Assembly (NCBI GenBank): GCA_050010515.1 | Contig: JBEKKX010000042.1 | Span: 1 to 18,754, forward strand | Direction of reading: 5' to 3' | DNA from: Candidatus Bathyarchaeia archaeon | GTDB lineage: Archaea > Thermoproteota > Bathyarchaeia > Bathyarchaeales > Bathycorpusculaceae | DNA: 18,754 nucleotides | Part shown: positions 2,466-6,104 of the stretch, piece by piece | How the letters are laid out: each line of letters starts with the position of its first letter | How positions within the stretch are numbered: the stretch's first letter is position 1 | Translations under genes and position numbers: made by a program | The notes under the pieces: model-generated | Databases searched by the model: none | What the model was told of the DNA's origin: nothing | The model's input: the letters and a program-made list of their open reading frames with translations, nothing else

Positions 2466-2858
2466 ATGAGCAGACCAGTCGATGTCGGAGAATTACGCGT
2501 TGGCGGCTACATGATGATTGAAGGCGAACCCTGCAAAATAGTAGACATCGCAAAGTCAAAGCCTGGAAAACACGGATCCGCCAAATTCAGAATTGTTGCT
2601 ATCGGCGTATTTGATGGTCAAAAAAGACAGTTCGTCAAACCCGTTGATTTAGGCGCTGAAATTCCGATAATTGATAAGAGACCCGGACAAGTTTTCGCCA
2701 TTAACCCCACAGGAGTTCAAATAATGGATCTGGAAACCTACGAGTACCTAGATGCCCCATTCCCTGAAGAAGAAGACCTCAAAGCCAAGCTTGTCGCCGG
2801 CGCAGAAATCGAATACTGGAAAATACTTGGAAGAGTAAAAATCGTCAGAGTAAAATAA
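2466..2858 (+). CDS. eif5a: Translation factor aIF5A (eIF-5A)
   Basis: Hypusination motif SKPGKHGSAK; QIMDLETYE; 130 aa. Confidence 0.97.
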   Translation: MSRPVDVGELRVGGYMMIEGEPCKIVDIAKSKPGKHGSAKFRIVAIGVFDGQKRQFVKPVDLGAEIPIIDKRPGQVFAINPTGVQIMDLETYEYLDAPFPEEEDLKAKLVAGAEIEYWKILGRVKIVRVK

Positions 2859-2861
2859 TCA

Positions 2862-2891
2862 ATTAGCAAATTGCTAATCTTTTCTCTTCTC
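2862..2891 (+). terminator. Palindrome plus pyrimidine tract between convergent genes
   Basis: ATTAGCAA-A-TTGCTAAT (2862-2878) followed by CTTTTCTCTTCTC. Confidence 0.45.
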
Positions 2892-2923
2892 ACTTATCTG
2901 AGCGTTTGTCTGTTATTTGTTTT

Positions 2924-3124
2924 CTAGTTCCACCAAGTCCAACCGAGCTTTTTGAAGCTAAGGTACATTGCTAAGAGAATTATTCCCCAGCTTAATGGAA
3001 TGCTTCCGATTACGAGTATGAGGTTAGCTTGCAGGTAAGTGTAACTTGCCCAAGCACTTAAAACCGTTAAACCTACAAGTAACAAAACAAAAATACCTGC
3101 GTGGATTGCTCGTTCTGCCGTCAA
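2924..3124 (-). CDS. Small membrane protein with two predicted TM helices
   Basis: 66 aa with two hydrophobic segments and a basic/Trp-rich C-terminus (KKLGWTWWN). TTG start preceded by SD-like GGGTG. Confidence 0.6.
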   Translation of the reverse strand: MTAERAIHAGIFVLLLVGLTVLSAWASYTYLQANLILVIGSIPLSWGIILLAMYLSFKKLGWTWWN

Positions 3125-3213
3125 CTATTACACCCAAGTTATTTACCAGTATTCCCCTGCATTGTTAAAAGATTTTCCGTTAATGTTTATTTTCTAGTTG
3201 GATCCTTTTTTGT

Positions 3214-3280
3214 TGAAGCCAATGATGCATGAAGAGCCGTCTGAATTGTGAAGAATGCTTAATGGGGAACTGAGGCTTCA
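3214..3280 (+). ncRNA. Box C/D methylation-guide sRNA
   Basis: 7-bp terminal stem TGAAGCC/GGCTTCA. Box C ATGATGC (3222-3228), 12-nt guide, D' CTGA (3241-3244), C' GTGAAGA (3248-3254), 15-nt guide, D CTGA (3270-3273). Intergenic, 67 nt. Confidence 0.85.
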
Positions 3281-3415
3281 TAGACTTAACGCACTTTTCT
3301 CTAAGCAAAAAAGGCGTATCTTAAGGATAATCGAAAAAATTAGGCGCATTATCTTGTTTTTTAGCTGTAATCTTTATTTAAAAGAATTACAGAATGTTTA
3401 AGGCTGGAGACTCTG

Positions 3416-4759
3416 ATGGCGCTAGACAAGTTAGGTTCTTCTCTAACCGACGCTATAAAAAAACTGTTTAAGGCTAGCGTAGTGGACGAAGCCACAGTGA
3501 AAGAACTTGTCCGTGACATACAAAGAGCTTTACTTCAAGCAGATGTTAATGTTCAACTTGTCCTTGAAATTTCCAAGCGCATAGAAGAGCGAGCATTAAA
3601 AGAAAAAGTTCCTCCTGGCATTTCAAGACGCGAGCACGTTATCAAAGTTGTTTACGAAGAGTTAACGCGTTTTGTCGGTGATAAGCCTGTTCCTATCAAG
3701 ATGGAGCCTGGAAAAAGGGAAATCATAATGCTTGTTGGAATCCAAGGCTCAGGAAAAACCACGCAAGCCGCAAAACTGGCACGGTATTTCCAGAAAAGAG
3801 GGCTAAAGCCAGCGTTGATTTGCGCTGACACTTTTCGCCCCGGCGCGTTTGCTCAGCTTCAGCAATTGGCCGCTAGAATAAATATTCCAATTTATGGCGA
3901 CTTGAAAGCTAAAGACCCCATCAAAGTCGTCAAGGAAGGGTTAAAACAGTTCAACGACAGGGACTTGATAATCGTTGACACGTCAGGTAGGCACAAAGAA
4001 GAGAAAACTCTAATCAAAGAAATGAAGGACCTCGAAAAACACCTCAAACCTGACGAAGTCATCATGGTTATTGACGGCACCATCGGTCAACAAGCCCTTA
4101 TTCAAGCCAAAACGTTCCATGAAGCAACACCCATAGGCGCAATTATCGTAACAAAACTCGACGGTTCCTCGAGAGGAGGAGGCGCGCTTTCAGCAGTTGC
4201 AGCAACGGGCGCTCCCATAAAGTTTATTGGTACAGGCGAAAAAATCGAAGATATCGAGGCGTTTATTCCCTCACGTTTTGTCGGTCGACTCCTAGGCATG
4301 GGCGATTTAGAAACACTGTTAGAAAAGGTGCATGATGCCGAAATTAAGGTTCCGCCAAAAAAAGCCAAGGAAATACTCAGCGGAAATTTCACCCTGACAG
4401 ACATGTACGAGCAGTTCCAAGCCCTCAAAAAAATGGGTCCCTTCAGTAAAGTGCTAAAGATGTTACCCGGAATGTCTTCTGATATTCCACAAGACATGCT
4501 CAATACAGCTGAAGGCCGCTTGGATAAATGGGGAGTAATAATCCAATCCATGACACCTAAAGAAAGGGAAAACCCCAAAATATTGAACTCTTCTCGGGCA
4601 AAACGTGTGGCACGCGGTTCAGGAACAACTGAAAAAGAAGTTAAAGAACTCCTCAAGCAGTATGTAATGATGCGTAAAATGCTAAAGACGTTTAAGCGAA
4701 AAAAGAAACTGCCCTTCGGACTCGGCGGACAAGGAATGCCCGCGACTTTCGGCAGGTAG
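3416..4759 (+). CDS. srp54: Signal recognition particle protein SRP54
   Basis: ALLQADV, GIQGSGKTT P-loop, DTFRPGA, DTSGR, TKLDG, and a Met-rich M domain with RVARGSG. Confidence 0.98.
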   Translation: MALDKLGSSLTDAIKKLFKASVVDEATVKELVRDIQRALLQADVNVQLVLEISKRIEERALKEKVPPGISRREHVIKVVYEELTRFVGDKPVPIKMEPGKREIIMLVGIQGSGKTTQAAKLARYFQKRGLKPALICADTFRPGAFAQLQQLAARINIPIYGDLKAKDPIKVVKEGLKQFNDRDLIIVDTSGRHKEEKTLIKEMKDLEKHLKPDEVIMVIDGTIGQQALIQAKTFHEATPIGAIIVTKLDGSSRGGGALSAVAATGAPIKFIGTGEKIEDIEAFIPSRFVGRLLGMGDLETLLEKVHDAEIKVPPKKAKEILSGNFTLTDMYEQFQALKKMGPFSKVLKMLPGMSSDIPQDMLNTAEGRLDKWGVIIQSMTPKERENPKILNSSRAKRVARGSGTTEKEVKELLKQYVMMRKMLKTFKRKKKLPFGLGGQGMPATFGR

Positions 4760-4769
4760 GCTTCATGAA

Positions 4770-6104
4770 ATGGATATACTTGAAAAAGCGTTTGAACTTC
4801 TCAGCAAATATCCCCTCTGCGACCACTGCCTTGGCAGACAATTTGCTTCGCTTGGTTACAGCATGGAAAATAACGTTCGAGGCTCAGCATTAAAAATCAG
4901 TTTAACCTTGCAAGCCAACGACCTTGCCAAAGAAAAAAACCTTGATGGCATTAAGCAACTTAAAATTTTGGCGACTAATGGTTTTTCAAAAGAAGCACAA
5001 GAAACCCTAAAACACCTCAAGAAACGCGTTCCTAAAAAAGGCTTGGACGCCGAGTGTTTTCTTTGTGAAGGCAAGTTTGAGCTTATTAACAGCTTAACCG
5101 AGAAGTCCTTAGGCGCTATTGAAGGTTATGAGTTTACAACGTTCCTTGTAGGAATTGAATTACCAGTTAAGGTCGAGGAACGTGAGGACGAATTTAAGGC
5201 TGCCTTCAACCTCGGCTATAGCGAAAGTATAAAACATGAATTTGGACGATTATTCGGCAAAGCGCTTGCCATACGCGCTGGTAAAGAAGTGGAATACTTA
5301 AAGCCTGACATGGTCGTAGTAATCAACCCTTTCCTCGAGAAGGTGCGAGTTCAGGTTAACCCGCTTTTTGTCGCTGGCAGGTACCGTAAGCTGGTGCGTG
5401 ACATTCCACAGTCAAAATGGTTCTGTTCCAGTTGCCGTGGAAGAGGTTGTGAGAAGTGCGGTGGAACCGGCAAATTGTATCCTGAATCGGTTGAGGAGCT
5501 CTCTTCAAAGCCCCTGTTGGAAGCAACTGAGGGTGAAAAAACAGCGTTTCATGCTTCTGGTCGCGAGGATATTGATGCTCGGATGTTGGGTGCTGGTCGG
5601 CCTTTTGTTATTGAGGTTTCTAAGCCTAAGAAGCGGTTTGTTGATTTGAAGGAAATTGAAGCCAAAGTCAATGCTGATGCTGTGGGTAAGGTTGAGGTTT
5701 CGCGGTTGCGTTTTACCACTAAGGATGTGGTCAGGCGGCTCAAGAAGGGTGAAGGCGCGCAGAAAGAGTATCGGTTGCTGGCTGAGTTTGAGAACGAGGT
5801 TTCTGATGAGGGTTTGCGGATGTTGGAAGAGACGCTTAGCGGCTCTTTAATTAAGCAGCAGACGCCTCTGCGGGTTTTGCATAGGAGGGCGGATTTAATC
5901 CGAGAAAGGTACATATATAAGGTTAAAGTTAAGAAGGTGTCGCTTAAGAGAGCTCTGATGGAAATTCGTTGCCAAGGCGGCCTCTATGTTAAGGAATTGG
6001 TATCTGGAGATGAAGGAAGAACAATACCGAACGTTTCAGATTTGCTTGGAAACAGAGGGAAGACGCTTAAGCTTGACGTTTTAAAAATTATAATGGATGA
6101 TTAA
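4770..6104 (+). CDS. pus10: tRNA pseudouridine(54/55) synthase Pus10
   Basis: N-terminal LCDHCLGR...CFLC, GRYRKLVRDIPQ, catalytic GREDIDARMLG, QQTPLRVLHRR and GGLYVKELVSGD. Confidence 0.96.
   Translation: MDILEKAFELLSKYPLCDHCLGRQFASLGYSMENNVRGSALKISLTLQANDLAKEKNLDGIKQLKILATNGFSKEAQETLKHLKKRVPKKGLDAECFLCEGKFELINSLTEKSLGAIEGYEFTTFLVGIELPVKVEEREDEFKAAFNLGYSESIKHEFGRLFGKALAIRAGKEVEYLKPDMVVVINPFLEKVRVQVNPLFVAGRYRKLVRDIPQSKWFCSSCRGRGCEKCGGTGKLYPESVEELSSKPLLEATEGEKTAFHASGREDIDARMLGAGRPFVIEVSKPKKRFVDLKEIEAKVNADAVGKVEVSRLRFTTKDVVRRLKKGEGAQKEYRLLAEFENEVSDEGLRMLEETLSGSLIKQQTPLRVLHRRADLIRERYIYKVKVKKVSLKRALMEIRCQGGLYVKELVSGDEGRTIPNVSDLLGNRGKTLKLDVLKIIMDD

Follow-up and report, generated by a model that had tools for sequence, protein, structure and literature searches.

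The window analysed here, the whole 18,754-nucleotide (nt) stretch, is contig C42 of a 66-contig Bathyarchaeia assembly (2.38 Mb, 42.6% G+C, estimated 98.5% complete) and is contained in DNA runs from peat, wetland and soil metagenomes. Between its aIF5A and SRP54 genes lies a box C/D small RNA (sRNA) at 3214-3280 on the forward strand, with a complete C-D'-C'-D architecture (Table 1). Direct reading of the sequence bears out the boxes, 7-bp terminal stem and coordinates given by an earlier note on this DNA, here called the original prediction. The class-defining combination of C box, D box and terminal stem is present, and only the seventh C-box nucleotide deviates from consensus; the GA and UG positions of the kink-turn (k-turn) are intact, and the deviant nucleotide presumably lies beyond the G-C closing pair in k-turn geometry. 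The D' and C' boxes are joined by the short loop that is likewise diagnostic of the class, arranged as a kink-loop (k-loop). Archaeal guides are described in passages of PMC7994747 as 10-12 nt long, with methylation at N+5; the D' spacer fits this length rule, and the D spacer, 15 nt here and 9-31 nt among 107 unique spacers of the family, does not. Only this site in the genome matches a pattern for the full architecture with a stem of at least 4 bp, and the reversed control is free of matches; a looser scan for a C box, a D box and a stem of 6 bp or more returned 2 matches against 0 in the control and added nothing convincing. The single-strand minimum-free-energy fold of the locus is undistinctive (z = -0.63), as expected for a C/D RNA because k-turns are stabilised by protein.

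Table 1. Features of the sRNA locus and its surroundings, with positions in the window
Feature	Position	Strand	Description
5' half of terminal stem	3214-3220	+	UGAAGCC; 7 bp with 3274-3280
Single unpaired A	3221	+	between 5' stem and C box
C box	3222-3228	+	AUGAUGC; consensus RUGAUGA, seventh nucleotide C, not A
D' guide spacer	3229-3240	+	AUGAAGAGCCGU, exactly 12 nt
rRNA-pairing part of D' spacer	3231-3239	+	GAAGAGCCG; partner 23S CGGCUCUUC
G3236		+	fifth nucleotide upstream of D'
D' box	3241-3244	+	CUGA
D'-C' loop		+	AUU, 3 nt (k-loop arrangement)
C' box	3248-3254	+	GUGAAGA
D spacer	3255-3269	+	AUGCUUAAUGGGGAA, 15 nt; length and sequence variable in the family
D box	3270-3273	+	CUGA
3' half of terminal stem	3274-3280	+	GGCUUCA; perfect 7 bp with 5' half
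Putative archaeal promoter	3177-3197	+	BRE-like stretch and TATA-like box
Stretch like a TFB-recognition element (BRE)	3177-3184	+	CCGTTAAT
Conserved upstream element	3185-3197	+	GTTTATTTTCTAG
TATA-like box	3186-3193	+	TTTATTTT, ~25 nt ahead of stem
aIF5A	2466-2858	+	upstream neighbour; Pfam IF5A-like_N 5.5e-21, eIF-5a
SRP54	3416-4759	+	downstream neighbour; Pfam SRP54 9.3e-74
Pus10 (tRNA pseudouridine synthase)	4770-6104	+	after SRP54; Pfam Pus10_C 2.2e-70

Nine base pairs, at positions 2-10 counted from D', join the D' guide GAAGAGCCG to CGGCUCUUC of congener 23S ribosomal RNA (rRNA). Just outside the duplex, U at position 1 faces U and U at position 11 faces C. The complementarity runs across the fifth position, where G3236 stands opposite the second C of CGGCUC. 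The host's own 23S is unassembled, so the target is inferred from congeners; CGGCUCUUC occurs within ACCUCGAUGUCGGCUCUUCC, in the peptidyl-transferase region, in 3/3 same-genus genes and 9 from other Bathyarchaeia, that is, in all 12 Bathyarchaeia 23S genes examined, as expected from the complementarity noticed originally. Likewise CGGCTCTTC lies within ACCTCGATGTCGGCTCTTCC in the six 23S genes first examined (three of them same-genus) and in six further Bathyarchaeia 23S. Alignment of a congener 23S to the 2904-nt rrlH of Escherichia coli K-12, in which C2498, U2552 and U2580 serve as anchors and keep their textbook numbers, places the +5 nucleotide (C2627 in the congener numbering) at E. coli C2510, the position to which the original prediction had assigned it. 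Where sRNA and 23S occur in the same genome (G044, G069), the guide GGAAGAGCCG forms a 10-bp duplex at the C2510 site, by far the best in 16S plus 23S of G044 and the best in the 23S of G069, which was scanned alone.

Conservation is concentrated on the same elements. Searched for at the DNA level in 40 relatives, the region turned up at E <= 1e-20 in 23 of the 24 other genomes of the genus, with weaker matches in four other families. We aligned the window with 19 same-genus loci collected by BLAST with the whole region, so that the invariance of the D' guide in this set is no search artefact. Across these 20 loci the C box, the D' guide with all its 12 columns, the D' and D boxes and the 3' stem vary in no column, and 6/7 columns of the 5' stem and 9/10 of the loop plus C' box are likewise invariant; the D spacer reaches a majority fraction of 0.85, and the flanks, at 0.56 upstream and 0.43 downstream, contain no invariant column. 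The boxes are thus conserved in relatives (C' nearly so), a point on which the original prediction had staked its reading.

Beyond the genus, a strict pattern scan of species-representative genomes recovered at least 120 loci. Among the 120 matches listed, 113 have the full architecture, the seven exceptions being four bacterial chance matches, two truncated loci and one Asgard-type RNA, and 108 carry titles of Bathyarchaeota, Bathyarchaeia, Bathyarchaeales, Bathyarchaeum or Bathycorpusculum. Two loci titled otherwise, L043 (Candidatus Sulfotelmatobacter sp.) and L088 (Candidatus Acidoferrum sp.), contain Bathyarchaeia-type sRNAs of full architecture and are probably archaeal contigs mis-binned into bacterial metagenome-assembled genomes (MAGs). 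L122, which bears the title Nitrososphaerota, belongs by genome classification to the Asgard phylum. Over 140 homologues the D' box reads CUGA in 124, CGGA in 15 and CAGA in one, the C' box reads GUGAAGA in 103 and GUGACGA in 24, and the D'-C' loop measures 3 nt in 126. The terminal stem, assessed in 46 diverse homologues, is paired in 91% of cells (80-100% for the inner six pairs, against 29-55% in sliding controls); its changes lead mostly to G-U, with 7 cells altered on both sides, and its covariation score was equalled in 11 of 500 shuffles. A covariance model built from the 46 homologues gives one match in the host's own genome and, at E <= 0.01, matches 14 of 15 other same-family genomes and 45 of 150 other genomes sampled from the class. 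Seventeen of the 24 printed model matches, window included, keep GAAGAGCCG exactly. A loose phylum-wide pattern, TGANG-N5-8-GAGCCGNCNGA, proved unusable for estimating prevalence: it hit 122 of 401 genomes with many hits in the reversed control as well, and all seven non-family loci inspected from it (L203-L207, L209, L210) are devoid of C' and D boxes. The sRNA family is genuine, strongly conserved, Bathyarchaeia-wide and, as far as we found, undescribed; literature searches, which are weak because the slash in 'C/D' is unsearchable, returned no paper on C/D sRNAs of Bathyarchaeia, Thaumarchaeota or Asgard archaea.

The same target is predicted for other archaeal guides. The supplementary tables of Dennis et al. 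2015 (PMC4644070) predict methylation of 23S C2784 (alignment numbering) by Methanopyrus kandleri sR7 and Ignicoccus hospitalis sR473, and in their alignment block C2784 is the second C of CGGCUC, the nucleotide targeted by the window's guide; for Sulfolobus sR7 and Thermoproteus sR50 the neighbouring 2783 is predicted instead. The C2510 equivalent is therefore already a predicted archaeal target, and the site is not new for archaea. A strict pattern applied to 301 Asgard genomes (the phylum of a Promethearchaeota MAG) matched 8 genomes, with 0 in the reversed control: one match is cut by a contig end, two are chance-like in coding sequence, and five are canonical dual-guide sRNAs (L234, at about 745-800 on the minus strand, L237, at 1496-1553, L238, L239 and L240, in genomes G535, G577, G606, G594 and G629). 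Such same-guide counterparts, which the original prediction had proposed to look for upstream of srp54 in Asgard genomes, thus occur in 5 of 301, with gene neighbours other than those in Bathyarchaeia. Their layout is UGAUG(U/A), (A/U)GGAAGAGCCG(U/C), CUGA, a short loop, UGAUGA, a 12-nt spacer and CUGA, and in G606 the best rRNA duplex of the D' guide is again the C2510 site, over 10 bp. The D guide in G606 forms 11 bp, two of them G-U, with the P-loop GCUGGGGUGGC, and its +5 nucleotide would by our reckoning be E. coli G2251. Both sites targeted by the Asgard sRNAs belong to the peptidyl-transferase centre. After the Asgard D box comes a conserved ..UGGUG.., perhaps the start of a downstream gene.

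The host encodes the protein partners of such an RNA. Genes for Nop5 (Nop 3.3e-72) and fibrillarin (Fibrillarin 5.2e-97) are adjacent on contig C12 of the same genome, which also contains two genes of the Ribosomal_L7Ae family, so that L7Ae, Nop5 and fibrillarin are all represented. Motif scans revealed no second convincing C/D sRNA in this genome, scans so crude that degenerate boxes would be missed, and the organism may run its methylation machinery with very few guides.

Upstream of the sRNA, 132 unique homologue sequences share an (A/G)TTTAT(T/G)TTCTAG element at about -30 to -18 from the stem, with 92-96% A+T at -28 to -25, and the motif TTTA[TA][AT] clusters at -32 to -28 (58 of 86 occurrences). 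From this sequence signature we infer that the element at 3177-3197 acts as a promoter; the distance of its TATA-like box presumably fits an archaeal promoter with transcription starting at or just before the stem. Six metatranscriptome runs contain 4-5% of sampled words, and contigs of four of these runs were compared with the window; three contigs cover srp54 alone. No discrete small RNA appears among the assembled metatranscriptome contigs examined. RNAs of this size are lost from standard libraries.

The D side of the RNA is a different matter. Complementarity of D spacers to congener 16S plus 23S is at noise level (72 of 107 with at least 8 bp and at most one G-U, vs a shuffled mean of 66), and in the window's clade only UGGGG is conserved in this spacer, at a variable distance from D, which leaves no fixed +5 methylation site on the D side. 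Two weak candidates are 23S CCUAUUAA (E. coli 2558-2565; 8-10 bp, one G-U) and UCCCCAU near E. coli 2473-2479, a 7-bp match spotted by eye. In the window's genus the D spacer is probably not a canonical methylation guide. The AAUGGGG within it is reverse-complementary to a portion of the Asgard D guide (CCCCAUU, L234) and resembles the P-loop sense strand, a likeness that may be a coincidence. In a subclade (L061, L128, L142, L147, also L181) the D guide, ..UAAACCCAGCG, makes a duplex of 10-12 bp with 23S GCUGGGUUUAGA, its +5 nucleotide being E. coli G2581. GAGCUG within GCUGGGUUUAGA is complementary to CGGCUC of the D' target, so these subclade RNAs would bind both strands of one helix, which we take from 23S secondary structure to be helix 90. 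At L181 the D' guide is replaced and the UAAACCCAGCG-type D guide is kept with a 12-nt spacer. Distant families have in common a 12-nt D guide, (G/C)CC(C/U)UAUGAGU(G/U). The helix 91 loop, considered as a partner of its CCUAUGAGU(G/U), is ruled out by the different loop sequence in G044 and G142; the best match of the G044 D guide, a tentative one, is 23S 282 ACUCAUGGGG (10 bp, 1 G-U).

The order aIF5A, sRNA, SRP54 is kept in the genus, with SRP54 downstream in 19 of 19 loci (L008-L026), and aIF5A adjoins the sRNA in most Bathyarchaeia loci, those of distant families included. With Pus10 behind SRP54, window positions 2466-6104 form a conserved translation and RNA-modification cluster. In complete congeners 16S and 23S are unlinked and ~1 Mb apart (in G003, 23S at 0.56 Mb and 16S at 1.57 Mb).

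We consider it likely, and hold with good confidence, that the locus produces an independently transcribed box C/D sRNA guiding 2'-O-methylation of 23S rRNA at the C2510 equivalent. Judged from sequence, this is most likely the nucleotide at which the Bathyarchaeia D' guide directs methylation. Transcription, ribonucleoprotein (RNP) assembly and methylation are proposed here from observed architecture, conservation, complementarity with its position, and protein genes. The C and D boxes, closed by the 7-bp stem, would form a k-turn, and the D' and C' boxes, joined by the 3-nt loop, a k-loop; both would be bound first by L7Ae and then by Nop5 and fibrillarin. Through GAAGAGCCG, the 12-nt D' spacer would pair with CGGCUCUUC, taken as the 5' strand of helix 90 in the peptidyl-transferase centre, and fibrillarin would 2'-O-methylate the C opposite the fifth guide position, most likely during 50S assembly while that strand is still unpaired. 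The D spacer would contribute at most accessory pairing, and in this genus it is probably no second methylation guide.

This proposal must be tempered by several observations that weigh against it. Position 7 of the C box is C, the D spacer violates the 12-nt rule, and a 9-bp duplex is near the lower limit for archaeal guides; since the calculated a-priori chance of a 9-mer match in ~4.5 kb of rRNA is roughly 0.02-0.07, the case for the target rests on conservation. The invariance of the guide across loci L035-L154 is a consequence of the guide-fixing pattern with which they were found, and only the BLAST- and model-derived sets are unbiased. In the model-derived set the guide is changed in 7 of the 24 printed matches: one reads GAAGAGCCA, three are shifted or wobble-paired, two are unrelated and one is the degraded copy of a congener (L179). 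That copy, in G128 (same genus, 96% complete), has degraded C and D' boxes, with AAUAACG.., GAAGAGUCAU and AUGA in place of C box, guide and D' box; it may be a decaying gene, which would imply that the RNA is dispensable in that species. The host assembly, for all its estimated completeness, contains no 16S or 23S rRNA gene. From RNA libraries, the sRNA is covered solely by a single 374-nt metatranscriptome contig from a relative, which matches 3214-3256 exactly, extends 199 nt upstream and proves neither transcription nor a small RNA.

Three other explanations deserve weighing. The C/D RNP might act mainly as an rRNA-folding chaperone that keeps one strand of helix 90, the 5' one, and its 3' partner as well in some relatives, single-stranded during assembly, with methylation secondary or absent. 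Dual-guide chaperone action has been proposed for archaeal sRNAs in passages of PMC4644070, and the RNAs of the subclade described above (L061, L128, L142, L147, L181) would bind both strands of the helix; the D spacer of the window's genus, however, has no convincing rRNA partner, and Bathyarchaeia and Asgard archaea alike keep the D' guide in one fixed register to the D' box, which matters for methylation and not for mere binding. We regard a chiefly chaperoning role as unlikely, while noting that the two roles are not mutually exclusive.

It is more improbable still, by our estimate, that the true D' target is another RNA (a messenger, transfer or non-coding RNA) and the 23S match coincidental. 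CGGCTCTTC does occur at 11 further genomic places, about the number expected by chance, and the host's rRNA is unassembled; yet the guide is fixed across families with widely differing genomes, whose only invariant partner is the universally conserved rRNA segment, the 23S site is the top duplex where sRNA and 23S share a genome, and none of the 37 transfer RNAs of the host's own genome matches the D' guide over 8 bp or more. Least probable of all, to our minds, is a conserved DNA element or 5' untranslated regulatory element of srp54 or aIF5A that resembles a C/D RNA by chance. Such an element would account for the fixed position between two translation-related genes and for the one metatranscriptome contig that spans the whole intergenic region, but hardly for four boxes, 12-nt spacing, a stem preserved through G-U changes and a TATA-like box of its own; moreover the same RNA stands in other neighbourhoods in distant families (e.g. 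L027-L029, L172, L189), and an Asgard sRNA with the same D' guide has neither gene nearby.

In animals and plants, SNORD49/U49 guides methylation of the C2510-equivalent C. We take human C4456 to correspond to E. coli C2510 from the SNORD49 consensus guide and general numbering offsets. The Rfam SNORD49 consensus starts UGcucUGAUGAaAccacuaAUAGGAAGUGCCGUCAGAa, its D' guide is complementary to UCGGCUCUUCCUAU except for one internal position, and by the +5 rule it picks the same C, the second of UCGGCUCUUCC, as the window's guide. Human 28S Cm4456 (Cm4426) is assigned to SNORD49A/B in a table of PMC9941101, in agreement with the original prediction. In a table excerpted from PMC3511168, AtU49 with Cm2869 and U49 with Cm4426 are among the targets of C/D small nucleolar RNAs (snoRNAs) placed in the last common ancestor of eukaryotes (LECA). 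In the sections of that paper considered here, Hoeppner and Poole name three LECA snoRNAs with a positionally conserved archaeal modification, with homology inferable for none, and do not mention U49 with an archaeal counterpart; the portions of the main text of PMC4644070 considered here draw no parallel to yeast or human sites. Positional counterparts among the oldest eukaryotic snoRNAs exist for very few archaeal sRNAs, and the Bathyarchaeia locus and its Asgard counterparts add U49/Cm4456 to that short list and place the pair in the two lineages of archaea nearest to the stem of the eukaryotes. That the only clear C/D sRNA found by crude scans in a mesophilic genome keeping the whole methylation machinery is this one suggests that methylation or chaperoning of helix 90 is a function worth keeping. 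For annotators, the covariance model is usable on a class-wide unannotated RNA gene, and experimenters are offered one precise testable site.

The shared archaeal-eukaryotic guide and target put forward by the original prediction accordingly holds at the level of the site, with homology unsupported beyond a guide similarity that the target imposes; common descent with SNORD49 is not demonstrated by such similarity, RNAs this short offer too little signal to decide the matter, and convergence is more likely than homology. That U49/SNORD49 descends directly from an sRNA in the common ancestor of Asgard and TACK archaea, with the same D' half, register and target, we consider doubtful, a shade less so than the chaperone explanation above. 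If it were true, the 'single-guide' design that is typical of eukaryotes would have an archaeal instance in the Bathyarchaeia RNA, where one guide is fixed and the other spacer is free and variable in length.

Across the window every Rfam family stays below its gathering score; in a permissive scan of 3100-3420, 14 of 17 sub-threshold matches are to C/D-box families, and 13 of these 14 overlap 3206-3308 on the plus strand. The best sub-threshold matches (sR1, sR2, sR3, sR14, sR23, SNORD91, snoR77Y) arise through common boxes and spacing, all fall below gathering (27.8 vs 52; sR2, 23.5 vs 42) and have unrelated guides. The highest score is that of SNORD91 (window 3211-3286; 30.9 bits vs 51), which has the termini GAAGCCAAUGAUG...CUGAGGCUUC in common with the window, including a GAAGCC...GGCUUC terminal stem; its guides are unrelated, and we take the likeness to be a terminal-stem coincidence. 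Methanopyrus sR7 and Ignicoccus sR473 are archaeal C/D sRNAs with the same predicted 23S nucleotide, but the guide of M. kandleri sR7 is on the D side with a CGGA box, both organisms are hyperthermophiles with more than 100 sRNAs each, and there is no sequence relation beyond boxes and guide. Closer are the Asgard sRNAs, with the same D' register and target and a 10-bp duplex with the organism's own 23S in G606; they differ in their canonical UGAUGU/UGAUGA boxes, 12-nt spacers on both sides, other gene neighbours and absence of the GAAGCC/GGCUUC stem, and score 19.8-21.3 bits against Rfam SNORD49 (gathering score 37). The window itself scores 14.7 bits (E = 0.37) against SNORD49 (RF00277), so that membership in this family, by the model comparison that the original prediction had proposed, fails. 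SNORD49 departs from the window's RNA in an interval of 22 nt from C to D', in its CAGA D' box and in one mismatch beside the target, and the two show no similarity outside boxes and guide. What SNORD49/U49 (with plant AtU49, RF00337, in clan CL00062) does have in common with it is a box C/D D' guide for the same conserved nucleotide of the large-subunit rRNA; the register is identical and guide position 1 is U in both, with AUAGGAAGUGCCGU-CAGA in the Rfam consensus, as the original prediction gave it, and AUGAAGAGCCGU-CUGA here.

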